Assembly: GCA_036745095.1 (NCBI GenBank)
Contig: DAIOGT010000001.1
Location: 26,201 to 90,200, forward strand
Reading direction: 5' to 3'
DNA from: Pyrinomonadaceae bacterium
GTDB lineage: Bacteria > Acidobacteriota > Blastocatellia > Pyrinomonadales > Pyrinomonadaceae
DNA: 64,000 nt
The first letter of the stretch is position 1. Every line of letters starts with the position of its first letter. Made by a program: the position numbers and the translations under genes. Positions 742 through 34,966 of the stretch are shown one piece after another. The notes beneath the pieces are model-generated. The model saw only the letters and a list, made by a program, of their open reading frames with translations. It searched no databases and was not told where the DNA came from.

Positions 742-880
742 TGACAAGCACGTCAAGGAGGCTCTCGTTCACGACGGGCGAGAGTACTACTTCTGCTCAG
801 TGGGATGTCGGGCTGAATTCGAGAGGCATGTTGAGGACTACGTTCAGAAGACAGTCGATGGGGTGAACAAAGATGTGTAG
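707..880 (+). CDS. YHS-domain (TRASH-like) small metal-binding protein
   Basis: DPVCHMPLD...GREYYFCSVGCRAEF fits the YHS motif. Start is 695 or 707. It overlaps the 3' end of the upstream gene, and its stop (878-880) overlaps the next ATG (873). Confidence 0.7.
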   Translation: MATDPVCHMPLDDKHVKEALVHDGREYYFCSVGCRAEFERHVEDYVQKTVDGVNKDV

Positions 881-4384: not shown

Positions 4385-4395
4385 GGAGAGGAATA

Positions 4396-5742: not shown

Positions 5743-5784
5743 GGATGCTTCGTCACAGGTTAGTGAATGAGGAAGGACTTGGAC

Positions 5785-7359: not shown

Positions 7360-7383
7360 CGAAAGTGAAGGTAAAAACAAGAC

Positions 7384-10300: not shown

Positions 10301-10698
10301 TGATCGCGCTTATGGGTGTTGATGCCGAAACTGGCATGTTCATGTTGCTCTATCTCGATATCGCCTTTAAGGACGCGAGAGCTAAAGGCCGAATGAGGAA
10401 CTGGAACGACCTGAAAGAGGCGATTCTACACGGGGCAGTAAAGCGACTTCGTCCGAAGGTCATGACCGTCGGTGTGATGTTTACCGGACTGGTGCCAATC
10501 ATGTGGTCAACCGGCAGCGGAGCCGACGTTATGAAGCGCATCGCAGCTCCGATGATCGGCGGCATCTTCACTTCTTTCATTCTCGAGCTGGTGGTCTATC
10601 CGGCAATCTACGCGATCTGGAAGTGGCACTTCGATGTGAAGAAAAATCCTATGCCGCCGTTGATCCAACCAGAGCCGCAGCCGGCTGATTGGAGGTGA
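7384..10698 (+). CDS. cusA: CusA/CzcA-family heavy-metal RND efflux pump (copy 1)
   Basis: 1104 aa. N-terminus MINKIIE...DALPDLSDTQVII. ATDPAPFSMMETVIELKP and [24 protein letters not shown] are Cu/Ag-type (HME4-like) motifs. Confidence 0.95.
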   Translation: MINKIIEICAHNKFMVLLIVGVLTLAGLWSIKNISLDALPDLSDTQVIIYSRWDRSPDIMEDQVTYPIISSLLGVPNVKDIRGFSDFGYSYVYIIFEDGTDIYWARSRTLEYLSNILPRLPEGVNVELARDETAVGWVYEYALVDKTGQNNLAQLRSFQDWHMRYALQAVPGVAEVAPLGGFVKQYQVNVDPNALLAYEIPIERVVEAVRQGNSDVGGRLIEFSGREYMVRGRGYIKKVSDVENIVVGTSKQGGTPILVSNLGTVTLGPDIRRGLADLDGEGDVVGGIVIMRYGENAEKVIQRVRTKLDELKPSLPKGVEIVTTYDRAELIERAVETLKGTLIEELIIVSLIIMIFLWHIPSAIVPIITIPITIIISFIPMYWMGITANIMSLGGIAIAIGAMIDAAIVVVEQTHKKLEHWDAEGRPGSYKDVVITAVKEVGGPSFFALLVIAVAFIPVFTLEGQEGRLFKPLAYTKNFSMAIAAFLAITLDPAIRLLFTHMDPYKFRPKFLAKITNAVLVGKIHSEETHPISRPLMKIYHPVCEFVLRHTWAVIILAVLAVVLTIPIFNRLGSEFMPPLNEGTLLYMPTTLPGISVTQTERLLQVMDKKLKSFPEVERVFGKAGRAETATDPAPFSMMETVIELKPESEWPKVPRWYSSWAPNWVQGILRRAWPDHKSTDELIYGPGGMNEALQLPGVSNAWTMPIKARIDMLTTGVRTPVGIKIMGADLAEVQKLGEHIEMSLKDVPGTKSVFAERAAGGYFLDFTLKREALARYGLTVDQANAVVMSAVGGENVTTTVEGRERYPVNVRYLRDYRSDPDKLSRTFVMAPNGTQIPLGQIAEIQLVTGPAMIRDENGRLSAYVTVDFDTSKRDIGSYVADAKKVLREKVQLPAGYQLIWSGQFESMERVKARLLIVVPITIFLIFMLLYFNTRSIAKTLIILLAVPFSAIGAIWFLYFLDYNMSIAVWVGLIALMGVDAETGMFMLLYLDIAFKDARAKGRMRNWNDLKEAILHGAVKRLRPKVMTVGVMFTGLVPIMWSTGSGADVMKRIAAPMIGGIFTSFILELVVYPAIYAIWKWHFDVKKNPMPPLIQPEPQPADWR

Positions 10699-12443
10699 CT
10701 TTGATTAACGAATTAGCGCCAGCATTGTTTCTGTTCATAGCTGTACTCCTGATCTTTGGAAGTACAAGGGTGGCCCGTCATCGCGGCTTGCCTGAAGCTC
10801 TGGGTTGCGGAGTGGCGCTCTGCATCATCGCGATAGCTATCGGGTTGTCACCGCCGACTTGGCGGGCCGGATGGGCAGGTGGGCCAGGGGGCGATCGTCT
10901 GCTCACCTCTGCGCGAATTGTGGGAATCAGCGGAATGCTTTTCATCGCGGGAACGCGTTTCGATTTCGGTGGAACGGCGCGCCGCATCGGTTTGCTAGTG
11001 AAAGCGGTAATAGTCGCAGGGGTTCTGTTGGTTGTTGCGATGCTGCTGGCGAAATGGATCGGAATGGAGTCAATACCCACGCTCGTCGTCGCTGTTGCTG
11101 TACTCGCAAGTAGCCTGTGGATACCTGCCGAGTTAGCTCGTTTCAAGAAGAGCGAGAACGATGCTTTGCCTACTTGGCAAACAATGGCCTTGGCGTTCAC
11201 CGGATTTGCAGTCTCAGTTATTTACTTCTTTGACGTTTTGTCTATAACGAATCGCACCCAACTGAGCGTGTTCACCTACGTCATTATTGTTTTATTTGAA
11301 GTAGTAAAGCTGTTTGTTCTATTTGGGTTTGCCTATTTTATCTGCAGCAAGTTTCTTGCGCGGGCGCGAGGCCGTATTTCTACCACACGCACCACCATTG
11401 GCTTTGTCCTCATTAGCGTCCTTGTCTTTATACTGATCGCAATCACGACGAACCAGTTGGCAGCCTTCGCCTGGGCCTTCGTTGCGGGAGCGTTGTGGCA
11501 ACAAAGCGAGAGCGGAAGGAAATTTGGGGACGCCTATAGACCGCTGGCCTCCGCGATGTTGATGTCCCTGGCGTTCGCCCCACTGATGTTGCAAACCCAT
11601 GGTCGAGATTTCCGAGGTTTGGGGTTCTTAGCCCTGTTCGTTGTAATCGCAGTTTTCGCAAAAGGTTTTCTTGCCTGGTTCTTGACGCAATCCGGCTCAC
11701 CGCTCCCGACGAGGGGACGTTTGGCGATTTCACTGGCTTTTCCCGGAGAAATCGCAATCGGGATTTTGGGATTCGCAATCACTAGGTGGCCGATCGCCGG
11801 ATCGCCGTACTTCGCTGTTCTAGGCTACGCAATCATTTCAACAGTCCTGATACCGGTCATGTGGACCGAGACCGCAATTGTAAACAACGAGGGAGTTGCG
11901 AGAAGGAGGAGTGCTATGCAAAAGCACATCGGAAAAGTTTTAGCTGTGGCTGTGTTGTTGCTCATGGTGATTTCAGGAACCGCGATAACAAGTTCTGCTC
12001 AGCAGACGCCAAACGACCCTCCTAATCAGCAGATAGAGCTTGGGCGGGGCATGAGTGCAATGACGCCCGGTCTGATGGAGATTGGATCGAAGACGAAGCT
12101 GTTCCTCGTCTTCGGAGACAAACTTCAACTCTCAACCGAACAAAGGAAAGGTCTCGAGGATCTCTATGTCCGAATTCAGACTTATAGCTTCCAACGCGAG
12201 GCTGACCTCGACGTCGCAGACGCCGAGCTGAAGCGATTGCTGACGAGGGACACCGTCGATCTAGGCGCGGTTAAGGCAAAGATGAAGGAGATCGAGACGA
12301 TCCGAGTCGAAGTGAACATGAAGAAGATCGAGACGCTTTTGCAGGCAATCAATGCCCTGACGCACGAGCAACATACGCAAATCGTCCTGTTGGCTCGCGA
12401 TCTTGAGGAAGCCAGTAAACCGCGTGCGCCGATCTACCAATGA
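10689..12443 (+). CDS. multi-pass membrane protein (cation/H+ exchanger-like N-terminus) continuous in frame with a signal-peptide-bearing LTXXQ (Spy/CpxP/ZraP-like) periplasmic domain
   Basis: About 10 hydrophobic helices in aa 1-400. In-frame ATG at 11916 is preceded by AAGGAGG and followed by a signal peptide (KVLAVAVLLLMVISGTAITSSAQQ) and LSTEQ / LTHEQ motifs. There is no stop between the two parts. Confidence 0.5.
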   Translation: MEVTLINELAPALFLFIAVLLIFGSTRVARHRGLPEALGCGVALCIIAIAIGLSPPTWRAGWAGGPGGDRLLTSARIVGISGMLFIAGTRFDFGGTARRIGLLVKAVIVAGVLLVVAMLLAKWIGMESIPTLVVAVAVLASSLWIPAELARFKKSENDALPTWQTMALAFTGFAVSVIYFFDVLSITNRTQLSVFTYVIIVLFEVVKLFVLFGFAYFICSKFLARARGRISTTRTTIGFVLISVLVFILIAITTNQLAAFAWAFVAGALWQQSESGRKFGDAYRPLASAMLMSLAFAPLMLQTHGRDFRGLGFLALFVVIAVFAKGFLAWFLTQSGSPLPTRGRLAISLAFPGEIAIGILGFAITRWPIAGSPYFAVLGYAIISTVLIPVMWTETAIVNNEGVARRRSAMQKHIGKVLAVAVLLLMVISGTAITSSAQQTPNDPPNQQIELGRGMSAMTPGLMEIGSKTKLFLVFGDKLQLSTEQRKGLEDLYVRIQTYSFQREADLDVADAELKRLLTRDTVDLGAVKAKMKEIETIRVEVNMKKIETLLQAINALTHEQHTQIVLLARDLEEASKPRAPIYQ

Positions 12444-12466
12444 GCCGGGTTGAGGAGGTGAGAGAA

Positions 12467-13027
12467 ATGGTTGACCACAATAATTCGACGGCGACTCAGG
12501 TTGCTGAGACCGTAAACAAGGTGACGAATGACGCACGGATGGAGCAGTTGCGGGCGACCGCTCGCAAACATCAAGTCTGTTACGAAGTTTGGCCAGAGCG
12601 GTCAGTTGCCGAAGGGCGCAAAATTCTGATCGGTTTTGAGTTGCAGCTCTGTGGAACAAACAGCCACATAGCCGCAAAAGGAGCGCATCAGCCGGTCCCT
12701 GGTTGTGAGTACTGCCAGAGCACTTACGAAGACCTGCGACAGATCGCTGAGTGGATACTGCCGCGAGAAGAACGACCTTCGCGCTATGAGATAGGCGGGT
12801 TCGATCGTTCTCTGCACATTGCTCCCCATAGTCGGCAGTTGCGAAACGAGGTTGTCGTCTCTATTCATATCATGCACCGGTCGGACTTTAATCGCGAAGT
12901 AGATGACTGTGAAAACCGATGTCTAAAGGAGATGCGCCAGAGGCTCTTACAACTAGGCATTCGTCAGGACCTCTGGCGCGGGGAAAATCGGGTTGAGAAG
13001 GGAGGAAGCGATGAAACTGCTGGATAA
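12467..13027 (+). CDS. hypothetical protein
   Basis: ORF 12440..13027. ATG at 12467 follows GAGGAGG; ATG at 12440 overlaps the upstream stop (ATGA). I recognise no motif (contains PGCEYC). Confidence 0.4.
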   Translation: MVDHNNSTATQVAETVNKVTNDARMEQLRATARKHQVCYEVWPERSVAEGRKILIGFELQLCGTNSHIAAKGAHQPVPGCEYCQSTYEDLRQIAEWILPREERPSRYEIGGFDRSLHIAPHSRQLRNEVVVSIHIMHRSDFNREVDDCENRCLKEMRQRLLQLGIRQDLWRGENRVEKGGSDETAG

Positions 13028-13592
13028 GTTAGAAGCACTGTTCGTCAATCAACCGGAGAGGAAAAAGAACGAGCACCCAAGCTTGTTTGATCGGTTGCGA
13101 AACGTCTTCTTTGCCGCCGAATTTCTCAAAAAAGACCTGCAAGGCATTCCACCATTCTGCCGTTGTGAGGACGCGATTTCTCATTTGGAAGGCCGTTGTA
13201 GCTGTACCAAACGTCCTGCTGGTTCGCAAGCCGAAGAGGTTAGCGCGAAGGGTTGCCTGGCACATCTTGAAACTCTTCGTTTGGATGTCAGATCGCTGCG
13301 CCAATCGCTGCAGCGCCACAGAAACGAGCTGCGGCCCGAAGAAAAAACCGAAGAGGTAAGGCGTGAGCTCTCTCTGATCGAGAATTTTGCGGAAAACATG
13401 GGGTCCATTGTCGAGGAGATCAGGAATCACGCTTCGGAGTGGGAACTTAGCTGCTCCAACGACGCACTCCAGCGATTGAAGGAAAGCAGTTCTGAGTTGG
13501 AAAAATATTCGACGGAGTTCTTCTGGTCTCTGTTGAAGCAGGATCGGGGAGAGCAGATAAACAGTTCGTCGAAAGTCAAGCGGGTTTCATGA
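13011..13592 (+). CDS. Cys/His-rich helical protein, divergent paralog 2 of 3
   Basis: ATG at 13011 follows GAAGGGAGGA. Motif FCRCEDAISHLEGRCSC, then GCLAHLETLRLDV (compare NCSAIIARLRTDL) and LSCSNDAL (compare MNCSITQM). Confidence 0.55.
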   Translation: MKLLDKLEALFVNQPERKKNEHPSLFDRLRNVFFAAEFLKKDLQGIPPFCRCEDAISHLEGRCSCTKRPAGSQAEEVSAKGCLAHLETLRLDVRSLRQSLQRHRNELRPEEKTEEVRRELSLIENFAENMGSIVEEIRNHASEWELSCSNDALQRLKESSSELEKYSTEFFWSLLKQDRGEQINSSSKVKRVS

Positions 13593-13638
13593 GCCGAGAG
13601 AAGGAATAATGGCTTACCGACACGGAAAGGGAAATGAG

Positions 13639-14370
13639 ATGAGTATTAAGTTCGCAATGCGCCTAGCCGTCTGGAGCGCATGTTTTGTGCTTTTGTTTGC
13701 GCTACGGGTCAACGCGCAGGAGTTCACATACAAAGTCGAACAGGATCGTTTGATTGGCCATCGTGATGGCGAGCTGATCATTTCAGATAAAGCTGTCGAG
13801 TACCGCGCGAAGAGAAACAAGGAAAGCCGCGCGTGGACGTACACAGATATCAGACTCCTGGAAATCCTGTCGCCGACGCGCGTGCGCATCTGGACGTACA
13901 AAGACCGCAAGCTGCGGCTGGGCCGCGATCAAAGTCTGACGCTCAAGATTGTCGAAGGACAAATCGATCAGAAAGTCAGCGACTTCTTACGGGAGCGCAT
14001 CGCGCGTCCGTTCGTTACCTCTTTCGCTGAGGAAGATCAAAACGCCCTGGCGCAAATACCGGTGAAGCACTCTCATCGTCTCGGAGGATGCGAAGGACTG
14101 CTGAGGATTTATCCAGATAGATTGGTGTACGAATCTCAAACTGGACATGACTCGCGTAGTTGGCGTTGGACCGACATTCGGTCAGTTGGGCGCTCAGACC
14201 TTTATCGGTTTGATGTAGAGACGTTCGAGCCTCAGCTTGGCGCGTCAAGTCGCAGCTTCAATTTCACTCTGAAAGAACGAATGGCGGACAAGACTTATGA
14301 CTTGATCTGGAGTCGCGTCTATCGCCCGACTCCGCTGATCAGGGCGGGTGAGGGAGTGACCGGAAAGTAG
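13639..14370 (+). CDS. secreted protein with an internal tandem duplication
   Basis: Signal peptide [28 protein letters not shown]. Two ~100-aa repeats share G.L.I......Y......SR[AS]W.[YW]TDIR. Confidence 0.5.
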
Positions 14371-14393: not shown

Positions 14394-16154
14394 GTGGCAG
14401 AAGTCAAGACAAGCGGGCGATCGGATTACGCACTGGCCCAAGCGGCCGGAAAGGGCGATATGCACGCCTTTGAAGAACTCTATCTGCGCCACAACCGTCG
14501 CGTGTATTCGCTCTGCTTGCGGATGACGAGAAATGGTACCGATGCTGAGGACCTCGCACAGGAAGTCTTTATCCAGCTCTCTCGCAAGATCGGAAGCTTT
14601 CGCGGCCAAGCGGCCTTCACAACCTGGCTGCATCGGCTGACGGTCAATCAGGTGCTCATGCACTTTCGCAAACGCGGCGTGCGCTTGGAACACACGACCG
14701 AGGAGGGCGAGACACCCGTACAAATCGTCAAAGGGACTGAGAATCATCGGACGATGCCGATCATCGATCGCATTGCGCTGGACGATGCAATCGCGCAACT
14801 GCCGCCGGGCTATCGACTGGTCTTCACGCTGCACGATATCGAAGGGCATGAGCACGCAGAGATTGCGAGGATGCTGGGCCGCACAGTGGGAACCTCGAAG
14901 TCGCAACTGCATAAAGCGCGAATGAAATTACGTTCTTTGTTAAAGCGAAGAGACAAGCCAGGGTTGCCTGGAGATGATGGTGGCAATGGTTCCCTAAAGG
15001 AAATTATGCAGAAGAAAACAACTACGAGAGCGATCACCCAAGTTACGCCAGTAGGCCTTCAAAGCCAACCGGCTCCGCATTGGAGAAATGTCAGTTGGCA
15101 TTTCTCGCTGCTACTTGGCGCACTGTTGTTCCTTACTTTGAGCGCGCAGGGACAGACAGTCGAGTCAAACATTCCAAAGAGCACGACTGCAGACCAAACA
15201 CAAGCGGTAAACATTGAGCACTACCTGGATCGATTGATTTCCAGTGCAGTCATTGCAGGCGACGCAGCCGATGTAATCAAAGAGGCGGACAGTTATCGCA
15301 CTCAGGCAACCCAGAAATTGAAGAACGGGCGTCGCGACGAAGCACGCGCGTTGTTCAGGCAAGCGGGCGAGGTAATTGCAGCCGCCGCCCCCGATGGAGA
15401 CATTAAACGAGAAGATCCTCTACTGCGTGATTATCTGCGAGAGATCACCAGAGAACTGGTTGCGCTCGACTCCGCGAACAACTCGCCGTCAGCCATGTCA
15501 ATTGAAGGAAGCTCTCTCACTGGGAATTACGCCGCGCAGCCACGCATCGCTGCTTTCCTTAGTTACTTTCAGGGCCGAGGAAGAACACGGCTGGAAATTG
15601 GACGAGCGCGCTTCGCTTTATACCAACCAATGATGACGCGAGTTTTCCGCGAGGAAGGTGTGCCCGAATGGTTGCTTGGAGTTGGCTTTGTAGAAAGCAC
15701 TTATAACTCGACAGCACATTCACCGAAAGAGGCCCATGGTATCTGGCAATTTATACCCGGCACAGGAGCGCGCTATGGACTTCGACGTACCGCGTGGACT
15801 GACGAGAGGAGCGATCCGGAAAAATCAACGCGGGCTGCTGCCCGGTATCTTCGTGATCTACACGCTTTGTTTGGCGATTGGCAGCTTGCTTTGGCGGCTT
15901 ACAACTGGGGTGAGGGTCGAGTCGCCAGAGTCATACGTCGGACTGGTATCCGCGACTTTTGGACCATGGCCGAACGGGGTCTGATGCCGCAAGAGACAGC
16001 CAACTATGTGCCCTCGGTACTCGCAGCTTCGCAACTGTTGCTCGGGGGCAATAAAACAGTCGTTGAGGTAAAACCAGCATCAGGATTTTCCTCCGGTCGC
16101 GGTGCTGAAGCTGAACTGAAGCAGGGAAATGATCGCGGCAGGCCGGCGCACTGA
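14394..16154 (+). CDS. ECF sigma-70 factor continuous in frame with a TM segment and an MltD-like lytic transglycosylase (SLT) domain
   Basis: Sigma region 2 ([13 protein letters not shown]...[14 protein letters not shown]) and region 4 ([44 protein letters not shown]). Then [19 protein letters not shown]. Then [10 protein letters not shown]...[11 protein letters not shown]...[10 protein letters not shown] (SLT catalytic Glu motif). Confidence 0.65.
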
Positions 16155-16226: not shown

Positions 16227-16634
16227 ATGACAGTTAGTGATATCGCACGACGAAGCGGCGTTCCCGTACATGTCGTGCGCTACTACACACGAATCGGGCT
16301 GCTTAAGCCTTCGCGTAATCCGCGTAATGGGTACAAACAATACGAGGACTCCGATCTTTCGCGGCTGCGATTTATCCGGCAGGCCAAGAGTCTGGGGTAC
16401 AAACTCGATGAGATCGACCGCATTTTTCGAGAAAGCAGCAGGGGAAAGTCACCGTGTCCGATGGTTCGCTGCATCATCGGAAATCGGATTGAAGAGAATA
16501 GACTCAGGTTGAAGGAACTGGCGGCGCTGCAAAGACGAATGGAGCGAGCGCTGGCTAAATGGGCAAAACTGCCCGACGGTAAGCCCGATGGCCACACAGT
16601 TTGCTATCTCATTGAGTCTACGGCCGGCATGTGA
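16227..16634 (+). CDS. MerR-family transcriptional regulator (heavy-metal-responsive type likely)
   Basis: N-terminal wHTH MTVSDIARRSGVPVHVVRYYTRIGLL, coiled-coil dimerisation helix, and Cys residues (SPCPMVRC, TVCY) in the effector region. Confidence 0.85.
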   Translation: MTVSDIARRSGVPVHVVRYYTRIGLLKPSRNPRNGYKQYEDSDLSRLRFIRQAKSLGYKLDEIDRIFRESSRGKSPCPMVRCIIGNRIEENRLRLKELAALQRRMERALAKWAKLPDGKPDGHTVCYLIESTAGM

Positions 16635-20596: not shown

Positions 20597-20890
20597 ATGA
20601 GCGAACATAAATTAGAAAACCCCGGCGATGAACCGCTGGGCAGTGTCGATGTGAGCGAGTTGATTGCTACACGAGCGCACGAGATATTTCAAAGCCGCGG
20701 TGGCGAGCACGGGCACGATCTTGACGATTGGCTCCAAGCGGAACAAGAGGTCCGGGGATCGTTGAGTACCGAAAACCTTGTATCAGCCGCCGATCAGCAA
20801 CTCGCGGCAAGAGCGGGCGCGGCAACAAGCCTGTCTGCGAGTGAACCCCAAGCGTCCGAGCCAAGTGCTCGCAGTGGCAAGAAGAGGTGA
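20597..20890 (+). CDS. DUF2934-domain protein
   Basis: RAHEIFQSRGGEHGHDLDDWLQAEQEV matches the DUF2934 signature as I remember it. Strong SD GAAGGAGG. Confidence 0.6.
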   Translation: MSEHKLENPGDEPLGSVDVSELIATRAHEIFQSRGGEHGHDLDDWLQAEQEVRGSLSTENLVSAADQQLAARAGAATSLSASEPQASEPSARSGKKR

Positions 20891-20974: not shown

Positions 20975-21445
20975 ATGGACTTGTTACAGCTTTGGCAAAA
21001 CATCGGTCAGGAAGCGAGAGATCTGGCAACAGCCGTCGAGCGGCTTCCCGATGAGTGCGAATGCGGCGACGCGGATGCTCATCTGAGCGGCAGGTGTGCC
21101 TGTTGCGGCGGACATACTCATGGTCATCATCCCACTGACAGTCAGGACTGTGTAGAGATAATCCGTCGTCTGCGAACGGATCTAACAGTGTTGGGCCAAG
21201 ACCTGTCAGTTGCGGGTCCAGCGCTTGGCGCCTCTGCGCTTGAGACTCAACGTCTGGAACTGCGGCGGGGCATCTTTCTCGCGGCTGCCGATTTGGAGGC
21301 GATCCTTGAATCGTTCAAGCGACTGACCGAGTCCGTGGCGGGGTTTCGACGGGAATGCACGATCACTCGCATGCGGACGGTCAAGCGCCGGTGTGTCGAA
21401 CTGCGTGATCATTGCGACCGTGTTAATGCGGAGTTGCTCGATTAG
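20975..21445 (+). CDS. Cys/His-rich helical protein, paralog 3 of 3 (CxCGDx3HLxGRCxCC motif)
   Basis: ECECGDADAHLSGRCACCGGHTHGHH. Collinear with 199..741. SD GGGGAGGAGG. Confidence 0.6.
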   Translation: MDLLQLWQNIGQEARDLATAVERLPDECECGDADAHLSGRCACCGGHTHGHHPTDSQDCVEIIRRLRTDLTVLGQDLSVAGPALGASALETQRLELRRGIFLAAADLEAILESFKRLTESVAGFRRECTITRMRTVKRRCVELRDHCDRVNAELLD

Positions 21446-21784: not shown

Positions 21785-22876
21785 ATGAGAGACCACCGGT
21801 TCAAATTCGGATTGCGTTGGAAGCTGAATCTGCTGATCGGCGTGATAGTGATTCTTACTATGAGTCTCTTCGAGGGGCTCAGCCTTTATCGCGAACGGCA
21901 AATGCTTATCTCCGCTCGCTCCCAGCACCTGGAAGAGTTAGCCCACCACTTGGGCTGGGTGGTGAGGAATTCAGGCGGACAGGACCAGCAGAATGTGATT
22001 TTCAATTACGAGCGCGCCATCAACAGTGACGGTGCGTACGGGTACCGGGCGCTGATCCTCAACGATCGGTCCCAGGTTGTTGCTGCCACTAACCCTCAGT
22101 TGGTGGGCACGGTAATGGATGAGCGAAGATTGCTGCAGAGTTACAAGAAGATAGGCACCGATACTCCCGCGCAAGTGTATCTCGAAGACACCGCACAGAT
22201 GGCGGTGACACTACCGATCGTTGTGCGCTCCGACGAGCCAGGCACCGGAGACAAATCCCTTACGGTTTTGATCTCTGCACCGCTCGATGACATCTGGAAG
22301 AGTTTGAACACCTCCCTGATAACACACGCCTTTCATCTCCTCTTTACAGTTCTAGCGCTCGCCCTCGTCACCAACCTCGCCCTGTCAGTCTTCGTACTTC
22401 AACCAATTCGCAAGCTATTGGCTGGGATGAGGCGGATGGAGAGAGGAGAGTGGACCAACGAACTTCCGGTCAGGACTAGCGACGAGATTGGCAGATTGAC
22501 GAGGGGCTACAACGCTCTGGGACGGAATTTGGAGACGAAGGTTCGCTGTCTAGTGAGAGCCGAGAAACTAGCTTCGGTCGCGCTGGTGGCTATTCAGTTG
22601 AACCGGGAACTGAAAAAACCGATCGAGCGAATCCGCGGCAGCGCTGACTATCTGTGCCGGCACAACGCCTTCGATAGCGAATCAGCACACGCGATCGGCA
22701 GAATCTTCGATCAGACGGAAAGAATTTTGGGGCTGAGTGATAAGTTTAACCGGGATTTCTCCGCGCAGTTTGAATCGGAGGAGAATCATGATGAGAAACG
22801 CAACGGCGCAAGTCGGGAACCTAACGGCGGGCCACGAAAGCCACCGGCAGGAGGATCGGCGGTCGCTCATCTTTAG
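21785..22876 (+). CDS. membrane sensor with HAMP and a degenerate DHp-like helix, but no ATPase domain
   Basis: Two TMs flank a ~150-aa extracytoplasmic region. HAMP: PIRKLLAGMRRMERGEW...SDEIGRLTRGYNALG. Then ALVAIQLNRELKKPI where kinases carry the H-box, and the protein ends ~90 aa later. Confidence 0.65.
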   Translation: MRDHRFKFGLRWKLNLLIGVIVILTMSLFEGLSLYRERQMLISARSQHLEELAHHLGWVVRNSGGQDQQNVIFNYERAINSDGAYGYRALILNDRSQVVAATNPQLVGTVMDERRLLQSYKKIGTDTPAQVYLEDTAQMAVTLPIVVRSDEPGTGDKSLTVLISAPLDDIWKSLNTSLITHAFHLLFTVLALALVTNLALSVFVLQPIRKLLAGMRRMERGEWTNELPVRTSDEIGRLTRGYNALGRNLETKVRCLVRAEKLASVALVAIQLNRELKKPIERIRGSADYLCRHNAFDSESAHAIGRIFDQTERILGLSDKFNRDFSAQFESEENHDEKRNGASREPNGGPRKPPAGGSAVAHL

Positions 22877-26555: not shown

Positions 26556-26784
26556 GCCGTCCTAAGAGCTGACAACGAAGTATTGCGAAAGCATCTCCAA
26601 AGGGTAACCAGAAACGCTGGATACAGAGAAGGCTGTTAGGCACGGCTGGGAGACTCGTGATTGGCAACCCAAGTACCTAGCTCCGGGTCAACTACTTGGG
26701 GCGATAAGTGAAATGGCTTCTGTAACTAGGTCCGCGTTACAGTCCGCTGGTTTCAGCCCCGAAGATCATTAAGGAGGTAAGGTG

Positions 26785-27804
26785 ATGTCGCGCGCAAAGG
26801 CGTTCAAATTTCTGGCGATCTGCGGCGTTCTTCTGTCGGCCTTCTCGTGGGTTAGTTTGAAATCGTTGTCTAATTCATCCGCGAGCGCGATGAACGACGT
26901 ACCTTCGGTCGGAGCGGTTAACATCAGCGATGACTACGTCGGCAGCGATGCGTGCAAGGACTGCCACGAAGATCAATTCAAGAACTTCTCTCATACCGCG
27001 CATGCCAAGCTCGCGACTCTCGGGTCCTGGAAGGGCAAAGTGACTGGCTGCGAGCAATGTCATGGCCCTGGTAAAGCACACATTCAAGAGGGCGATAAAA
27101 CGAAGATCCTCTCCTTTGCGAACAAGTCGCCGAAGGCGATCTCCGAGACATGCCTGACCTGCCACGCTGGCAAAGATGAACACAACAACTTCCGTCGTGG
27201 CGAGCACTGGCGCAACGATGTCGGCTGCACCGACTGTCACTCGTCACATAGTCCCGAACCAACCACCGGTAATCCCAGATCGAATACTTTCGTGTCCGAA
27301 GCCGCGCGGCGCAATACCGATACGTTGGTGGCGCACATGTTGCGCAATAGCGAACCACAACTCTGCCTAAATTGCCACACAGAGATGAAGGCGCAGTTCA
27401 ACATGCCCTTTCATCACCGCGTGCTCGAGGGCACGATGAAGTGCACCGATTGCCATAACGCGCATGGCGGCTTCGAACTCAAACAGACGAGACTTTCGGT
27501 TGGCGCTGATTCGGGTTGTCTCAAGTGTCATGTAGATAAGCAAGGCCCATTCGTCTTCGAGCATGCGCCGCTCAAGATCGACGGCTGTGCCATATGTCAC
27601 TCGCCGCACGGTTCCGCTAACCCGAAATTGCTGGTGCGATCACAGATCAGGCAGTTGTGTCTGGAATGCCACAGCAACGTCGCTGAGATAGGTGCGCCGA
27701 ACACCCCTAGTTTCCATAATCAGGCGACCGTCCGATTCCAGAATTGCACGACGTGTCACGTCAAGATTCACGGATCGCAGGTGGATCCTACCTTCTTCCG
27801 ATAG
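26785..27804 (+). CDS. periplasmic decahaem c-type cytochrome, MtrA/DmsE/PioA-like
   Basis: Ten CxxCH motifs by hand count (CKDCH, CEQCH, CLTCH, CTDCH, CLNCH, CTDCH, CLKCH, CAICH, CLECH, CTTCH) in ~340 aa. Signal peptide present. C-terminal CHVKIHGSQVDPTFFR. AAGGAGG SD. Confidence 0.9.
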   Translation: MSRAKAFKFLAICGVLLSAFSWVSLKSLSNSSASAMNDVPSVGAVNISDDYVGSDACKDCHEDQFKNFSHTAHAKLATLGSWKGKVTGCEQCHGPGKAHIQEGDKTKILSFANKSPKAISETCLTCHAGKDEHNNFRRGEHWRNDVGCTDCHSSHSPEPTTGNPRSNTFVSEAARRNTDTLVAHMLRNSEPQLCLNCHTEMKAQFNMPFHHRVLEGTMKCTDCHNAHGGFELKQTRLSVGADSGCLKCHVDKQGPFVFEHAPLKIDGCAICHSPHGSANPKLLVRSQIRQLCLECHSNVAEIGAPNTPSFHNQATVRFQNCTTCHVKIHGSQVDPTFFR

Positions 27805-27852
27805 GGTAGCGTCGAGATAGGGTCGCAGTCCTATTGAGCGAGGATCGTTGAT

Positions 27853-29952
27853 ATGAAGAACAGAACCGCGTTGAGTCTGCGTTTGTTGGCATGCTTGCTG
27901 ATGTTGGTCTTTGGCATAATCACTGCCGGCGCGCAAACTCCCACGCCTTCCCCCAGTCCCAAGGACCAGAAAGCGGCGGCCAGCCAACAGTCAAGCGCCA
28001 CGAACGAGGCTCAAGTATTAGGAAGTTACAACGTAACTTCAAGTATAGAAGTTGGTGTTCGTGGTCTCTCGGTTGATGGCAATAACAACAAGTATCAGAG
28101 CGATCTGAACTACAGACCGGGCTTGCGCGTCTTTGATTCCAGCTTCTTACTGCAGCATAAGGATCGTCGTGGCACGCTCTTCGATGAATTTCTCGTTAAT
28201 ACTTCAGGATGGGGTGGGGATCCGCAGGGCTACACCCGCATCATGGCTGAGAAATCAGGAATTTATCGCTTTGACGCAAATGTCCGCCGTGTGAAGTACT
28301 TCAATAACCTTTCAAATCTTGCCCTCGGACAGCACACCAATAATACGCGAATAAACGTTGGCGATTATGACCTGACGTTGCTCCCTGAAAATCAGAAACA
28401 CAAGTTCTATCTCGGCTATTCACGAAATACTTTGAACGGGCCAGGAATAACCACCTATGACTTCTCGCGCGACGAATACGCGATCAACACGAATCAGGAA
28501 ACTCGCGCAAATAATTTCCGCGTCGGAATGGACGCCCGGCTCGGCCCGATTGATATCTCACTCCTTCAGGGCGCGCGCTACTTCAAGGACGATACCACCT
28601 ACAATGTGCAATTCACGAATGTGGGCAACAATCCAACGAACACTTCGCGGATTGATAGGCTGTTTCGCGAGCTGCCGACAGGCGGTCGCCATTTCTTTAC
28701 GCGTGTTAGTGCTCATACGCTGCTGGCAAAAAGGCTCGACGTCACCGCCCGCTACATCTACACCAGCTCCACCACCAGGTTCTCGTTCTTCGAACAGCTT
28801 TCAGGTCGTTCTGGAATTTCTCCGGGCAATATCATAAATCAGGAGACGTTTACCACCAGCGGAAAGGTCACACGGCCGTACGCGCTGGGAGAACTGGGCG
28901 TCACCTTCATGGCCACAGACAAGTTCAGAATCTCTAACACGTTCCGCTTCGACAACTTTCGTATCAATGGCGCGGACGTACTTTCCGACTTCCTGCGCCA
29001 ATCAACCCCCGCCGGCGTTCCCCTCCCACCGACGACAACCCTTACCACTTTCGTGCGCTCGACAAAGTATCGCCGCATCCTGAACACGATTGAGGGGGAT
29101 TACCAGTTCAGTCCGCGCTTCGCTGTCCATGGGGGATTTCGTATTTCACATCGAGACATTGAACACTTCGAAGTCACCGACGACGAGGTAGAGAACCCGG
29201 TGTTTGACAATAACACCCATTCCGTCATCTTCGGTTTCAAGGCTCGGCCCGCTTCGAGCTGGAACATCTATTTCGATGGCGAGCGCGGTACCTCGGACAG
29301 CGTGTTCACGAGACTGGAAAGTAACAGGTATACGAACTTTCGCGCTCGCACCCGCTATGCGCCGAACGGCAAAGTCTCACTGAACGCCTCGGTCATAACA
29401 AGAGACAACAGGAATCCTTCCGAAGTAATCACAGAGATTTCGGGGTTGCCGGCAAATCTTCTGCCGAACAGTTTGGACGTTGACATCAAGAGTCGAGTTT
29501 TCACTTCGACTATCGATTGGACACCCAAGCCAAAATTCTCCTTGAGCGGGGGCTACACGCATTTGCGGGTAACGAGCAACGCGGGAATCATCCTGTTTCT
29601 GGCTAACGTAAGCACGCTGGGCCAGAGCCAGTACTTCATGAGGGACAACTTCTTCTTCATCAACACGCTCATCAATCCGATTCCTCGCTTGACGGTGTTC
29701 GCGAGTTACCGCATCAACCGGGATCCGGGCCAGGGTAATTTGGTGGCGCCCTCCAACAACCTGATCATCAGCTCGTATCCTATGACGTTCCAATCTCCCG
29801 AAGCACGAGCCACTCTTAAAGTAACGAATCGCATTGATTGGAACATCGGCTACCAGTATTACAACTACCGCGACTGGTTTGTGCCGGGACAGAACTACCA
29901 CTCCCACCAGCCCTACACGTCGTTGCGCATATATTTCGGCCGTAAAGGTTAG
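27853..29952 (+). CDS. outer-membrane beta-barrel, MtrB/PioB-like porin partner (tentative)
   Basis: 699 aa. Signal peptide ...ITAGAQT. Alternating-hydrophobicity, Y/F/N/R-rich sequence throughout. Lies immediately downstream of the decahaem gene, and its size matches MtrB-class barrels. Confidence 0.7.
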   Translation: MKNRTALSLRLLACLLMLVFGIITAGAQTPTPSPSPKDQKAAASQQSSATNEAQVLGSYNVTSSIEVGVRGLSVDGNNNKYQSDLNYRPGLRVFDSSFLLQHKDRRGTLFDEFLVNTSGWGGDPQGYTRIMAEKSGIYRFDANVRRVKYFNNLSNLALGQHTNNTRINVGDYDLTLLPENQKHKFYLGYSRNTLNGPGITTYDFSRDEYAINTNQETRANNFRVGMDARLGPIDISLLQGARYFKDDTTYNVQFTNVGNNPTNTSRIDRLFRELPTGGRHFFTRVSAHTLLAKRLDVTARYIYTSSTTRFSFFEQLSGRSGISPGNIINQETFTTSGKVTRPYALGELGVTFMATDKFRISNTFRFDNFRINGADVLSDFLRQSTPAGVPLPPTTTLTTFVRSTKYRRILNTIEGDYQFSPRFAVHGGFRISHRDIEHFEVTDDEVENPVFDNNTHSVIFGFKARPASSWNIYFDGERGTSDSVFTRLESNRYTNFRARTRYAPNGKVSLNASVITRDNRNPSEVITEISGLPANLLPNSLDVDIKSRVFTSTIDWTPKPKFSLSGGYTHLRVTSNAGIILFLANVSTLGQSQYFMRDNFFFINTLINPIPRLTVFASYRINRDPGQGNLVAPSNNLIISSYPMTFQSPEARATLKVTNRIDWNIGYQYYNYRDWFVPGQNYHSHQPYTSLRIYFGRKG

Positions 29953-30223
29953 GAATTCACGTAATAATTCAAGACCGGTTATCATTGTTCGTCCCGACCT
30001 CTAGAGGGAACTGAAACCGGGAACATGAAATGGGAGCGCCGAAACTCTCACTCGAAAAGCGTCTCTTGATCAGCACGTTAGGAGATTGCGCGCGAGAAGC
30101 AAGTGCCATAACGCTGCCACTCCATCTGGTATTACTTCGGTGGCCTGACGCTGTTTCTCTTTAGGTGGTAGGCTGACGGATCCATACAACCGCGCTCTCG
30201 AGGCGCAAAGGAGAAGAAAAACA

Positions 30224-30793
30224 ATGATACGAACTGCAACTCTTTCCACTCTAATCTTCGTTTCAATCCTCTTGGTCGGTTGTGCGCAGACGAATACAAA
30301 CAACGCGAACGTCGTAAGCAATGCTAACGTTGCGACAAACACCGCGAACGCTAACGCCAGCCCCCTAAGTAATACGAATGCCAGTCCCACCAGTAATGCT
30401 AACGTCAACACGCAGCGAGAAGGCGAAACAGGCATGGAGACAATGGACAAGGGCATGGAGGAGATGAAGCATGGCGCCGAGCAGATGGATGAGGCCGAGG
30501 AAAAGATGGATAAGGACATGATGAGTCACGGCATGCAGATGGCCAAGAACGGCCAAGAGATGGTCAAGAAAGGCATGGATATGGAATCGGACATGGACAT
30601 GTCTCAACATAAGGAGATGATGGATAAAGGGATGGACATGATGGATCAGGGCATGCAGATGATGAGCAAGGGGATGGACGCCAAGGATAAGAAGATGATG
30701 CATCAGGGCATGAACATGATGAAGAACGGCATGGACATGATGAACAAACGCAAGGATATGATGAAGAAGGGGATGGGAATGAAGCACATGTAA
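30224..30793 (+). CDS. lipoprotein with an Asn/Ala/Thr-rich linker and an extremely Met-rich C-terminal domain
   Basis: Lipobox ILLVGC. NANV/NTANANAS low-complexity linker. Then ~119 aa with ~37 Met by hand count (GMDMM, GMQMM, GMNMM repeats). Confidence 0.8.
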   Translation: MIRTATLSTLIFVSILLVGCAQTNTNNANVVSNANVATNTANANASPLSNTNASPTSNANVNTQREGETGMETMDKGMEEMKHGAEQMDEAEEKMDKDMMSHGMQMAKNGQEMVKKGMDMESDMDMSQHKEMMDKGMDMMDQGMQMMSKGMDAKDKKMMHQGMNMMKNGMDMMNKRKDMMKKGMGMKHM

Positions 30794-30824
30794 AGGCGGG
30801 AAAGATAAAGTCTGAACAACGCGC

Positions 30825-30842
30825 AAGCACTCCATAGTGCTT
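30825..30842 (+). terminator. short hairpin after the Met-rich gene
   Basis: AAGCACT-ccat-AGTGCTT, 32 nt after the stop. No strong U-tract. Confidence 0.3.
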
Positions 30843-30891
30843 CGAATTAGTTACTGGTATTTCATCTGAATCTGACAAGGAATCCGCTGTT

Positions 30892-32796
30892 ATGAATTAC
30901 GGATTAGGGAGGCGCGCGCGTCCAGGCAACCGCTTTCTGCCAGCGGTGATGGTGGGTTGCATTTTGTTATGGTCTGGCGCCGCTCTTCCGCAGTCTGAGC
31001 ACGATGTCCATCACCCTGGTCAGAATGCCAATTCTCAAATGCCCCAACAGTCACCTTCACCGACAAGCATGGCCTCTCCGATGACCAGTCCTTCCTCAAG
31101 TGGGATGATGGGTGAGGGCGGCATGGAGGGAATGAAGGGGATGGAGGGAATGATGGGACAGCCGCGCAAGGAGCTCTATCCATCATTAATCGACTTACCC
31201 AATCTGTCCCCAGATCAGCGCGCCCAGATAGAACGGTTGGCTCAAGAACGCATGGAGTCGGGTCGGGCGTCAATGGCCGTCGCACTAGAACGACTGTCCG
31301 CCGCTTCCGCAAAACAGGATTACGCAGCTATGCAGGAAGCGTCGGCACAGCTGCGTGAGGCGCTCGCCCAATATGAGAGCGGGCTGGCGGCGCAGCGGGC
31401 ACTTAGAGACGGAAAAGTACCTAGCGACGTAGCACTTCAATGGTTTCAGCGCAACATGAATCTGCTGCCTGAGATCGGCACCGAAACTCCGCATGGAATC
31501 TTCGGGCTATCGTGGTTCCACTACATCACCATGATCATCCTGATCGCGTTTGCCGTCACGATGATCTGGATGTACTTCCACAAGATGCGGCGTGCGAACG
31601 CGCTGCTCTCCAGACTGGCGACCGCTACTTCGGACGCCAGTCTTATAGTTAGTCCGGCTACTTCTTCCGTCTCCCCTGCCACTACTGGCGGCGCACCAAC
31701 TTACGCACCTCCGAGCGAACCGATACCCGTCAGCTCTGATATCGCGCCATCGAAGTCGAATTCCTGGTCTGGTTCGTTACGAGTTGTCCGAATATTTCAG
31801 GAGACACCAGACGTTAAGACGTTTCGTTTTGTCGATCCGGATGGTGGCAAACTGCCGTTCACTTACCTGCCCGGTCAGTTCATAACTGTTACCATTGTCT
31901 CAGATGGAGTACCAGTAAGACGGTCCTACACTATTGCCTCATCTCCAACAAGACGGGACTCATGTGAAATCACGGTCAAGCGTGAGCAATATGGAGTTGT
32001 ATCTCAGTATCTGCATGATCAAGTCCATATAGGTGATCTGGTCCAGCTCATCGGCCCCTCAGGGAAGTTCACGTTTACTGGGCAGGAATCGGACAGCCTG
32101 GTGCTGATCGCCGGCGGTGTCGGTGTTACGCCGATGATGAGCGTTATTCGTTACCTGACTGATCGTTCGTGGTCTGGCGAGATCTTCTTCCTGTTCGGTT
32201 GCAAATCTGAAATCGACATTATCTTTAGAGAAGAGATTGAATATTTGCAGAAGCGGCACGCAAATCTACACGTCACGATTCTTCTCAATAAGAAACCTGA
32301 CGATGCGAAGAGTCCTTACCTGAGTGGCTACATTACCAAAGAGGTGGTTACTGAACGCGTGCCAGCGATCGTTTCGCGGCGCGTGCATATTTGCGGACCA
32401 CCACCAATGATGGAAGCCGTGAAACGAACACTTCTCGAATTGGAAGTGCCTGAAGAAAACATTAAGACCGAAATTTTTGCTGGAAAAACTCCGCCACCGA
32501 AAACTTCTCTGGGCGGCGCCAACGCAACGGCGACGTCGGCGATCTGTACTTTTGCTCGGTCAAAAAAAACCGCAGTGCTGCCGCCTGACAAAACAGTTTT
32601 GGAGGCATCGGAAGATGTTGGCGTGAACATTGGCTACTCGTGCCGAATAGGCGTTTGCGGGATTTGTAAAACAAAACTCCTTTCAGGCTCCGTGACCATG
32701 GAAGTGCAGGAAGCCTTAACGGATGACGATAAGGCGCAGAACATCATTCTCGCTTGCCAAGCCAAAGCGGTTGCGGATGTCGCAGTCGATGCATAA
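30892..32796 (+). CDS. fusion protein: signal peptide + Met-rich/LTXXQ-like periplasmic domain + one TM + FNR-type FAD/NAD(P)H reductase + plant-type [2Fe-2S] ferredoxin domain
   Basis: MASPMTSPSSSGMMGEGGMEGMKGMEGMMG. LSPDQRAQIERL. TM WFHYITMIILIAFAVTMIWMYF followed by HKMRRAN. RRSYTIASSP (RxYS FAD motif). LIAGGVGVTPMMS (NAD(P) binding). CRIGVCGICKTKL...ILACQA ([2Fe-2S] ligands). Confidence 0.8.
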   Translation: MNYGLGRRARPGNRFLPAVMVGCILLWSGAALPQSEHDVHHPGQNANSQMPQQSPSPTSMASPMTSPSSSGMMGEGGMEGMKGMEGMMGQPRKELYPSLIDLPNLSPDQRAQIERLAQERMESGRASMAVALERLSAASAKQDYAAMQEASAQLREALAQYESGLAAQRALRDGKVPSDVALQWFQRNMNLLPEIGTETPHGIFGLSWFHYITMIILIAFAVTMIWMYFHKMRRANALLSRLATATSDASLIVSPATSSVSPATTGGAPTYAPPSEPIPVSSDIAPSKSNSWSGSLRVVRIFQETPDVKTFRFVDPDGGKLPFTYLPGQFITVTIVSDGVPVRRSYTIASSPTRRDSCEITVKREQYGVVSQYLHDQVHIGDLVQLIGPSGKFTFTGQESDSLVLIAGGVGVTPMMSVIRYLTDRSWSGEIFFLFGCKSEIDIIFREEIEYLQKRHANLHVTILLNKKPDDAKSPYLSGYITKEVVTERVPAIVSRRVHICGPPPMMEAVKRTLLELEVPEENIKTEIFAGKTPPPKTSLGGANATATSAICTFARSKKTAVLPPDKTVLEASEDVGVNIGYSCRIGVCGICKTKLLSGSVTMEVQEALTDDDKAQNIILACQAKAVADVAVDA

Positions 32797-32802
32797 AAAA
32801 CG

Positions 32803-33564
32803 ATGAAAAGAGAGCGTATCCTTGTCGGTGGGTTACTGTTGCTCCTGCTAATTCTGTGGCTGGGGTTCCTGATCCACCGCTCGCCACGCTTTCCTGGAAG
32901 CCTATTCGGTAACGTACTCGCGATAACAGGCGCTCTGCTGATGCTGGTATTCCCTCTCGCCTATGCTGCTGCTAAACGAATTCCTCCCGTCAAGAGAATC
33001 CTGACGCGGCGAATCTCAATCGCGACTTTGCTGACCTGGCATCTCTACACAGGAATAGTCGGTTCCATCCTTGCGATCATCCACACCGGTCATCGGTTTG
33101 AAAGCAATCTTGGCATTGTTCTGACTGCAATGATGCTGCTGACGGTATTGAGCGGCTATGTCGGGAGACACTTCTTGAGCTACGTGACACTCGAACTTCA
33201 CGAGAAACAAACCCTGCTCAACAAGCTCGCGACGATTTACAACCAGACTGTTGCCGAACTAGGACGTCAACCCAATGTAACCGTAACTGCAGTGGCGTCG
33301 CACGGATTCTTTACGCCGATATTCAGCGGGTATGTTGCGCCTGGACCTTCGGCGAGCGAGAGCACGACACCAGTTTCTTATCGCGCCATTCACCTGGCAG
33401 AGTCAATTGCGGATGTGGAGTATGCGATTAAAACTCACGAGCTGTTTAAGCGCAGATCCGCGGTTTGGCTGAAAGTACACATCGCAACGTCAGCAGCGTT
33501 TTATGTCCTGTTAATTTTGCACGTCTGGAGCGAGATCTATTTCGGCCTGCGATGGCTGTCCTAG
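32803..33564 (+). CDS. five-TM membrane protein with two intramembrane His pairs (candidate di-haem b, ferric-reductase-domain-like)
   Basis: TM3 WHLYTGIVGSILAIIH and TM5 VHIATSAAFYVLLILH each carry His at i and i+14. Confidence 0.55.
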   Translation: MKRERILVGGLLLLLLILWLGFLIHRSPRFPGSLFGNVLAITGALLMLVFPLAYAAAKRIPPVKRILTRRISIATLLTWHLYTGIVGSILAIIHTGHRFESNLGIVLTAMMLLTVLSGYVGRHFLSYVTLELHEKQTLLNKLATIYNQTVAELGRQPNVTVTAVASHGFFTPIFSGYVAPGPSASESTTPVSYRAIHLAESIADVEYAIKTHELFKRRSAVWLKVHIATSAAFYVLLILHVWSEIYFGLRWLS

Positions 33565-33574
33565 AGACGGGGTT

Positions 33575-34369: not shown

Positions 34370-34966
34370 GGTACATCTCTTAAGCCTCCCCGCGCCTGGA
34401 GATGCGCCTCAATGTCATAAGGTCATAAAGGTCACGATTAGAAATAAAAGTCAAGAAATTGAAAAGAGCCAGGGACAGAAGTTCGGATAAACTGAATCCC
34501 TATTCAGAGAGTCAGACGAGGCTAAGCAACCGGCCGCAGGTTCGCGTGCTTGGCATCGCTTAACTATTTAAGGGGGGCTGCTGATGAAACTACCAACTCG
34601 CGGTTCATGCCCTTTCTTCAGCCGAATTAGTGCGGACAAGTGTCGCGGCGCGACCGTGGGCGTCCGGCACTCGCGCCCGCGCGCTCACGGTGATTGACTA
34701 TGCCCCTCATTCCGCTTTGACTAGGAAACGCAACGGGAGGGAGATGAAACTGATTCGACCGGAGATAGAGAGGCGTACGCGGGGGTGACGTGACCGCCGC
34801 CGACCGCTGGGCCTCCGCTGAACCGCCTGGGATTCCCCACGACAGGCAGCCCGTTGCAAGCTCAGCCGAGCAACGCCGTCAGGAGCAGTGGGGAGATTAG
34901 GGTTGCCGAATACCTTTCGATGGCTGTCGGCAGCGACACTGACAAGCCGTAGAAACGGGAGGCCAA

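Follow-up and report, generated by a model that had tools for sequence, protein, structure and literature searches.

A taxonomically narrow family of Cys- and His-rich helical proteins linked to heavy-metal efflux operons of Acidobacteriota

What are the small Cys- and His-rich proteins that are encoded three times in a metal island of a Pyrinomonadaceae bacterium, and what might they do there? The island lies in a stretch of 64,000 nucleotides (GenBank assembly GCA_036745095.1, contig DAIOGT010000001.1, positions 26,201 to 90,200), here called the window, and the three genes are designated A, B and C (Table 1). An earlier note on this DNA, made from its letters alone, had described their products as all-helical proteins that it could not assign to a named family, amplified inside a metal island, with a possible role in metal sensing, delivery or storage or in redox chemistry. 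We find that they belong to a family that occupies a fixed place in heavy-metal resistance-nodulation-division (RND) efflux operons, that is partnered by a second protein without annotation, X, and whose six conserved Cys and one conserved His are predicted to gather at one pole of a four-helix bundle.

All three open reading frames (ORFs) lie on the plus strand where the earlier note had placed them, and contain the motifs quoted there. A hidden Markov model (HMM) scan of all six frames found exactly three copies in the window. A and C, which had been judged collinear and ~45–50% identical by eye, are indeed collinear, at a slightly higher 54% identity over 157 aa (E = 4e-54). The description of B as a diverged copy that keeps the core also holds: B shares 30% identity with C over 71 aa (E = 2e-7) and 25% with A over 159 aa (E = 1e-9), and profile–profile comparison of the A/C-type and B-type alignments with hhalign gave a probability of 98.4% (E = 5e-15, 154 columns). 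B retains C50, C52, H58, C63, C65, C82 and C148, and its H140 is invariant within the B subtype. By these comparisons A, B and C are homologous and form one family. They are mutually 23–54% identical, and each stands in its own slot, syntenic in other genomes; they are old paralogs, so that “amplified” is too loose a term, and what remains of the phrase “amplified inside a metal island” is the setting.

The start codons are supported by database gene calls, which begin as in the window for C (P0001, 156 aa) and B (P0081, 193 aa), and by A-type homologs, which open with MSNMQIDLL, the equivalent of ATG 199 of A. Each of the three ATGs is preceded by a Shine-Dalgarno sequence, GGAGGAGG in the case of C and GGGAGGAAG in that of B, whose ATG lies inside the 3’ end of the X gene (17-nt overlap). 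By eye, the start of A overlaps the 3’ end of an upstream MgtC-like ORF, of which the window holds the C-terminus. Neither a transmembrane segment nor a signal peptide was detected in A, B or C, in agreement with the earlier note. With isoelectric points of 5.5–6.5 they are mildly acidic, and the family is predicted to consist of cytoplasmic proteins of ~150–190 aa.

A word-indexed database search returned 80 clusters with C as query and 64 with B, all labelled ‘hypothetical’ and without a Pfam domain; their named members come from metagenome-assembled genomes (MAGs) of Blastocatellia, Pyrinomonadaceae or Acidobacteriota, and a genome scan added Chloracidobacterium and further acidobacterial MAGs. 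Exhaustive comparison of an HMM from the merged alignment with 1.84 billion representatives yielded 133 proteins at E ≤ 1e-3 and no more, among them a distinct high-GC clade with the pattern LLGGWRD...P[DE]xCxCGxGxAHLxGxCxCC...CxDC...FRxGC. The Cys are thus conserved well beyond the source genome.

Known relatives were sought at several levels. A, B and C had no significant match in Pfam or NCBIfam, and Pfam at E ≤ 1 across 49 aligned members gave scattered coiled-coil noise. DUF7169 was matched by seven of the 49 (best E = 3e-4) and was dismissed, as the match was not reproduced in the distant clade. PCYCGC (PF13798) gave weak matches in a few members (E ~0.02–0.05); a relationship was ruled out by hhalign against the PCYCGC protein of locus L006 (2.9% probability, 24 columns), and PCYCGC proteins bear export signals, unlike family members. 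In sequence-profile searches of the PDB the matches listed amounted to noise, from DC-SIGNR neck repeats, haemagglutinin HA2, apolipoprotein and HPt domains, and Foldseek comparison of the family model with the PDB retrieved only generic four-helix bundles (FAT domains and de novo designs; best E = 0.23). In the literature we found no description of the family, of protein X or of the operon architecture. The earlier failure to assign the proteins to a named family is thus borne out, and no characterised family of unrelated function emerged. Taken together, the searches indicate a genuine, unannotated and taxonomically narrow family.

Ligand conservation was counted over 94 sequences from 50%-identity clusters, with residue numbers as in C. 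The conserved positions are C28 (88 of 94), C30 (90), H36 (76), C41 (88), C43 (90), C59 (88) and C128 (85), which give the family motif C28-x-C30 followed by H36-x4-C41-x-C43(-C44). C44 (57 of 94), C147 (18) and C140 (8) are subtype-specific, and the His-rich loop of C is not conserved across the family. A and C have nine Cys in common; family-wide there are only six, with one His. The “seven to eight conserved Cys plus His” of the earlier note was thus right in that several Cys are conserved, and too generous for the 94 relatives as a whole.

An AlphaFold2 model of C, built on a 37-sequence alignment, reached a mean predicted local distance difference test score (pLDDT) of 85 and a predicted template-modelling score of 0.79. 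It is all-helical, as had been supposed, and shows a four-helix bundle (residues 3–22, 59–91, 94–127 and 130–155). Residues 23–58 form a long excursion between helices 1 and 2 that contains two short helices and carries the core motif C-x-C-G-D-A-x2-H-L-x-G-R-C-x-C; pLDDT is ~87 up to residue 40, the CxC...H segment included, and disorder is confined to the variable residues 49–54. C59 is the first residue of helix 2, and C128 lies in the turn between helices 3 and 4. In an up-down bundle, helix 1 ends and helix 2 begins at the same pole, where the excursion between them and the helix 3–helix 4 turn also lie. All six conserved Cys and the His, two CxC pairs among them, are therefore predicted to co-localise there, in line with the converging Cys/His site that the earlier note had considered. 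Besides this predicted Cys6His pole, C carries the subtype-specific C44, C140 and C147 and its His-rich loop.

Gene neighbourhoods were read from tblastn maps of ~20 non-redundant loci. X directly adjoins a family member in ~12 of the 20, in either order and with A/C-type and B-type genes alike. Stop and start codons of the two genes overlap in both gene orders; in L006 the stop of the C-type gene and the start of the X gene share one base. The pair also occurs as single polypeptides, found in five separate 50%-identity clusters (P0287, P0296, P0305, P0330 and P0362), with the family domain N-terminal and X C-terminal (X matched at E = 1e-50 to 1e-55). One of the five fusions comes from a Pyrinomonadaceae MAG, and two occupy the same genomic slot as the unfused pair. 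X is a partner of the family, and the two appear to be co-evolving.

The X family comprises at least 183 database clusters. In X of the window, which the database gene call starts instead from ATG 12467 (186 aa), the invariant residues are H35, C80-x2-C83, H137 and C148-x3-C152, and C38 is nearly invariant. Its AlphaFold2 model is of moderate quality (pLDDT 70) and consists of a long N-terminal helix followed by a beta-beta-alpha-beta-beta-alpha arrangement in which each Cys pair sits at the N-terminus of a helix. For X, no Pfam family was found, a sequence-profile search of the PDB gave zero matches, and Foldseek gave nothing meaningful (best E = 0.18, template-modelling score < 0.35).

A further partner of the family is unk253, which carries two internal repeats (GELIIS...W.YTDI and GLLRIY...WRWTDI) and whose gene stands, in every B-type locus, between the B-type gene upstream and the gene for an SLT lytic transglycosylase downstream. 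In the P0271 cluster the two are fused: a B-type domain is followed by a basic linker, a transmembrane segment and an unk253-homologous domain. Five full-length fusions of this type (436–441 aa) come from independent samples, and in locus L027 the fusion stands after X and before SLT. Because a positively charged linker precedes the transmembrane segment, the Cys-rich domain is placed in the cytoplasm, and P0271-type proteins are predicted to tie a cytoplasmic Cys-rich domain to a periplasmic one.

B-type loci follow one order: OEP, a CusB-like adaptor with HMBD, a CusA/CzcA-family pump, a polytopic membrane/CpxP-like protein, X, B, unk253 and SLT. The order of the window operon recurs in L021, L023, L024, L025, L026 and L027. 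In the window the genes of this series overlap or stand ≤24 nt apart, and translational coupling joins the X–B module to the CusCBA-like operon at the 3’ end of the latter. The gene for the 584-aa membrane protein has overlaps on both sides, with the CusA stop and with the X start. In L015–L017 an A/C-type gene follows immediately after the pump gene. The family is thus linked to heavy-metal RND operons, in a fixed slot downstream of OEP-CusB(HMBD)-CusA, and the co-localisation with Cus-type pumps that the earlier note had raised is found in other genomes.

Table 1 Features of the window discussed in the text
Feature	Position	Strand	Description
C-terminus of MgtC/SapB-like membrane protein	1..218 (ends ~216-218)	+ (frame 3)	…AAIGIAVGVGMF…; recognised by eye
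Family member A	199..741	+	180 aa, A/C subtype; heads EgtC-like / FtrD-like / FtsX / ABC / Cus gene string
EgtC-like class-II amidotransferase	873..1775	+	194.7 bits against equivalog cut-off of 218.65
CusCBA-like heavy-metal RND efflux operon with 11-transmembrane/CpxP-like protein	4363..12443	+	OEP, CusB-like adaptor with HMBD, CusA/CzcA-family pump
584-aa membrane protein	10689..12443	+	~11 transmembrane helices (Na/H-exchanger-like), C-terminal CpxP/Metal_resist domain
X	12440..13027	+	195 aa from ATG 12440; alpha/beta protein without annotation
Family member B	13011..13592	+	193 aa, divergent B subtype
unk253	13609..14370	+	253 aa, exported or anchored; no Pfam family
ECF sigma factor–transmembrane segment–SLT lytic transglycosylase fusion	14394..16154	+	sigma regions 2 and 4, one transmembrane-like segment, C-terminal SLT; one Cys in ECF sigma
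MerR-family regulator	16227..16634	+	atypical ligand pattern C76, C81, H123, C126
DUF2934 protein	20597..20890	+	recurrent upstream neighbour of family members
Family member C	20975..21445	+	156 aa, A/C subtype
HAMP membrane pseudo-kinase	21785..22876	+	DHp-like segment without phospho-acceptor His; no ATPase domain
Cytochrome/reductase block	26782..36871	+	multihaem c-type cytochromes, membrane FAD/NAD/2Fe-2S reductase, ferric-reductase-like membrane protein, multicopper oxidase
Phage-type integrase	54456..55592	-	at 3’ end of co-directional metal gene string

Several other neighbours recur. In the window the SLT protein is fused to an extracytoplasmic function (ECF) sigma factor, and the same layout is found in L001 and L025. 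This fusion stands two genes downstream of B in the window and in L025, and ~7 kb from the C-type gene in L001. The SLT part is the constant downstream neighbour of the module and the sigma part occurs in some loci only: in the other ~17 loci the sigma domain is absent from the SLT protein, which is found there without sigma or fused to a Na/H-exchanger-like membrane domain. It is unusual for a sigma factor to be tethered to the membrane and to have a peptidoglycan-cleaving ectodomain. The apparent HAMP pseudo-kinase, a histidine-kinase-like membrane protein conserved directly downstream of C-type members, has the layout transmembrane segment, sensor, transmembrane segment, HAMP and DHp-like segment, with the phospho-acceptor His replaced (AIQLNRELKKPI). 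In L028, from the distant clade, the stop of the family gene overlaps the start of a DUF4118-HisKA kinase gene, and a DUF2934 gene lies upstream of the family gene as it does in the window. Further recurrent neighbours are FtrD-like/FtsX/ABC genes, VWA pairs, an EgtC-like amidohydrolase, Rieske with a 204-aa protein, DUF2911 and PCYCGC. The EgtC-like gene, also present in L013, L019, L020 and L026, hints at low-molecular-weight thiol chemistry of the gamma-glutamyl-Cys type in the island.

Which metal the island serves was considered from its inventory. The window encodes two CusA/CzcA-family pumps, a multicopper oxidase, a YtkA-like protein and a P1B ATPase whose score of 592 bits exceeds the Cu-type cut-off of 397 bits; the best named match of the adaptor is CusB, below the cut-off (204.8 vs 390 bits). 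CopB is present in L026. FtrD-like/DUF2318 proteins fall within the predicted CsoR copper regulon of gut Firmicutes (PMC4938975). Our best guess from these sequences is that copper or silver is the likeliest metal. The MerR-family regulator gave similar scores, all below cut-off, against the MerR, CueR, ZntR and CadR models and on this basis cannot be assigned to Hg, Cu or Zn. Besides this atypical MerR and the ECF sigma factor, a scan of the island proteins, which covered all but a few small ORFs, turned up no canonical Cu sensor. The cytochrome/reductase block is conserved in L021 and L026 as well and suggests that the efflux island is coupled to redox chemistry of metals.

Mobility of the island is possible, given a phage-type integrase gene at one end of its metal gene string and a MobL relaxase gene close to the homologous island of L001 (15438..16489 of that locus). 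Neither a tRNA nor a sharp compositional boundary delimiting the island was found in the window. A promoter and terminator scan of 10–24 kb was uninformative, with counts at or below shuffle expectation.

We next compared the family with known systems. Cu4S6 sensor clusters are built by six-Cys, CxC-rich domains of the yeast proteins Ace1, Amt1 and Mac1 and of Drosophila MTF-1 (dMTF-1), domains that arose convergently and share no sequence homology (PMC2396432). The family may resemble them: its six Cys, CxC pairs included, are predicted from model topology to gather at one pole, it is cytoplasmic, and a link to the copper response is probable. It differs in showing no homology to them, in not being joined to a DNA-binding domain and in having a second protein, X. 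Four of its Cys and the His lie in a 16-residue stretch, and two Cys come from distant helices. The Cu4S6 precedent would be functional, not homologous. In CorE-type ECF sigma factors a six-Cys domain and an essential CxC motif set the metal response (Cu or Cd/Zn), and CorE and CorE2 (ECF44) are, like the family, bacterial and cytoplasmic, with six Cys and a CxC motif, and stand beside metal-efflux genes (PMC4937300). Their Cys-rich domain is, however, a 28–38-residue sigma tail, whereas the family is a separate four-helix-bundle protein, the neighbouring sigma factor has one Cys and is fused to SLT, and most loci have no sigma at all.

Zinc-binding anti-sigma (ZAS) domains such as RsrA, ChrR and RslA are likewise small helical cytoplasmic domains with a Cys/His site; the P0271-type order of cytoplasmic domain, single transmembrane segment and periplasmic domain recalls them, and an ECF sigma is nearby in some loci. 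The family has H-x4-C-x-C(C) where ZAS (zf-HC2) has H-x3-C-x2-C, and six Cys against three. Membership was rejected, with no Pfam match to such a domain at E ≤ 1 in 49 members and no anti-sigma factor in the Foldseek top 50; anti-sigma chains were also not among the PDB profile matches listed (the best 60 of 98 in one search). Csp copper storage proteins line the whole core of their bundle with ~13–18 Cys borne on helices. Csp1 and Csp3 are, like the family, Cys-containing four-helix bundles in a copper context, and Csp3 shares the cytoplasmic location. The conserved Cys of the family are instead predicted at one pole, mostly in a loop, and its helix-borne C140 and C147 are not conserved; no match to Csp (DUF326) appeared in the Pfam scans.

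CsoR/RcnR proteins, metal-sensing repressors, are also all-helical bundles with Cys/His Cu(I) ligands, encoded in copper operons. They are ~100-aa three-helix protomers with an x-C-H-C signature, in contrast to the 156–193 aa, four helices and loop-borne Cys6His of the family, which had no Pfam or PDB match to them (PF02583). Bacterial metallothioneins (SmtA/BmtA, MymT) were set aside because they are dominated by Cys, have fewer than 80 aa and lack a stable fold in the apo form, as against the 150–190 aa and confidently modelled helical bundle of the family, which gave no Pfam match to them; the CxC/CC motif type alone is shared. The signature of CDGSH (mitoNEET) proteins is C-x-C-x2-(S/T)-x3-P-x-C-D-G-(S/A/T)-H. 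The ligand order of the family, C-x-C-x5-H-x4-C-x-C, differs, and no Pfam match was obtained. For histidine phosphotransfer (HPt) four-helix bundles there was only a PDB match at noise level (E = 0.014 over 43 residues), and no helix-borne His is conserved across subtypes, H140 being confined to the B type. In our judgement the family is structurally new but would belong with the known systems that sense or handle metal through thiolate clusters.

What, then, might the family do? The reading we tentatively favour, at somewhat less than an even chance, is that it acts with X as a cytoplasmic Cu(I)-thiolate cluster switch. The Cys6His pole would bind a soft metal, Cu(I) being the likeliest candidate. 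The metal might be held in a polynuclear thiolate cluster of the Cu4S6 type that forms cooperatively, and metal loading would alter how the bundle engages its partners. The main partner would be X (Cys4His2), which is adjacent, translationally coupled or fused; others would be membrane proteins of signalling type, namely unk253, the HAMP pseudo-kinase, the histidine kinase of the distant clade and, in some genomes, the ECF sigma–SLT protein. In this way the module would serve the Cus-type efflux island in which it is encoded, by reporting thiophilic metal in the cytoplasm or by handing it off. That the family binds metal, which metal it binds, how many metal ions the cluster holds and that the family acts as a sensor or switch are the parts of this proposal that we infer.

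X, the two kinds of natural fusion and the signalling-type membrane links, which were not in the earlier note and which we consider the most telling features, together tilt the reading towards a switch or sensor module. A sensor is favoured over a plain carrier because fusion or coupling of the domain to signalling-type proteins recurs, and because few canonical sensors occur among the island proteins scanned. Storage looks the least likely role because the six or seven ligands would cluster at one pole instead of lining the core as in Csp. A number of observations weigh against the switch. No DNA-binding or sigma-binding domain was recognisable in the family, whose proteins are mildly acidic. 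The genes lie within structural operons and are coupled to pump genes, which fits an accessory or chaperone equally well. An ECF sigma factor occurs in only ~3 of 20 loci (the window, L001 and L025), H36 is missing in 19% of members, and one distant member (L022) stands in an unrelated context with no X and no RND pump. Zn(II), Cd(II) and Fe-S clusters are equally possible occupants of CxC/Cys6 sites, and electron-transfer genes (Rieske, multihaem cytochromes, 2Fe-2S reductase) are numerous in the island. The predicted convergence of the ligands, too, is drawn from model topology.

These points leave room for other explanations. One, somewhat unlikely in our estimate, is a cytoplasmic metallochaperone or buffer, in which the Cys6His site and the Cys4His2 of X would capture Cu(I)/Ag(I) (or Cd/Zn) without regulatory output and pass it to the CusA-type pump, the FtrD-like/FtsX/ABC system or the P1B ATPase. 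Cu(I) carriers typically have Cys-rich CxC/CxCC motifs. The genes lie within a structural efflux operon to which they are translationally coupled, the three paralogs each stand beside a different transport module, and Pfam scans detected no DNA-binding domain. The dMTF-1 peptide, moreover, also chelates Cu in vivo (PMC2396432), which we count in favour of a chaperone. Yet six or seven ligands per 17-kDa protein make for a low buffer capacity, adjacency to the P1B ATPase is not consistent, and fusion or coupling to a transmembrane–periplasmic domain, a pseudo-kinase, a HisKA kinase and a sigma factor would be unexpected for a simple carrier.

An Fe-S or redox protein is less probable still. Here the pole and the CxxC...CxxxC of X would bind [2Fe-2S] or [4Fe-4S], and the proteins would transfer electrons or sense redox changes or damage to Fe-S clusters, in connection with the Rieske, cytochrome, ferredoxin-reductase and FtrD-like components of the island. 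The many electron-transfer genes of the island fit this idea, as does the description of the FtrD-like family as a membrane iron-sulfur protein; CDGSH proteins ligate a labile 2Fe-2S cluster by three Cys and one His, and the Cys pairs of X, at helix N-termini, resemble Fe or Zn Cys4 sites. However, CxC spacing is unusual for Fe-S ligation, the CDGSH signature is not followed, no Fe-S family appeared among the Pfam matches at E ≤ 1, and the tightest linkage is with Cus-type pumps rather than redox genes. Comparably improbable is a purely structural role for zinc, in which one or two Zn(II) would staple the helix 1–helix 2 excursion of a metal-independent protein that serves as an adaptor or scaffold, such as an unconventional anti-sigma factor, a partner of the pseudo-kinase or an assembly factor for a trans-envelope pump together with SLT. 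Structural Zn sites are common among small Cys-rich modules of the cytoplasm, the B–transmembrane–periplasmic layout mimics single-pass anti-sigma factors with an ECF sigma following in the window and L025, and SLT is a constant neighbour. Against this, the ZAS motif H-x3-C-x2-C is absent (the family has H-x4-C-x-C), Pfam, PDB sequence and fold searches found no anti-sigma domain, sigma is absent from most loci, and the exclusive metal-island context would be left unexplained.

The Cu(I)-thiolate switch can be taken one step further, to a proposal that we regard as a long shot: the family and X together would form a new cytoplasmic metal-sensing unit that signals, once an intermolecular metal-thiolate cluster has assembled, through non-canonical partners either across the membrane or along it. 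If true, the unit would control the expression or assembly of Cus-type efflux machines through the tandem-repeat protein with its membrane anchor, the pseudo-kinase that lacks the His and the ECF sigma–SLT protein tethered to the membrane. Beside one-component repressors and activators and CusRS-type two-component systems, bacteria would then have a third type of system for sensing Cu/Ag.

Acidobacteriota are among the most abundant soil bacteria, and their metal homeostasis is almost unstudied. Two co-evolving families without a Pfam or NCBIfam model, the Cys6His proteins and X, are fixed accessories of their Cus-type islands, in which few canonical copper sensors are recognisable. Models for both families would allow several hundred ‘hypothetical proteins’ to be annotated, and the natural fusions are ready-made constructs for structural and biochemical work. 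If the pole binds Cu(I), the family would represent a new structural solution for copper sensing or hand-off, a bundle-templated thiolate cluster with a Cys4His2 partner, and would provide a handle on the regulation of these islands.

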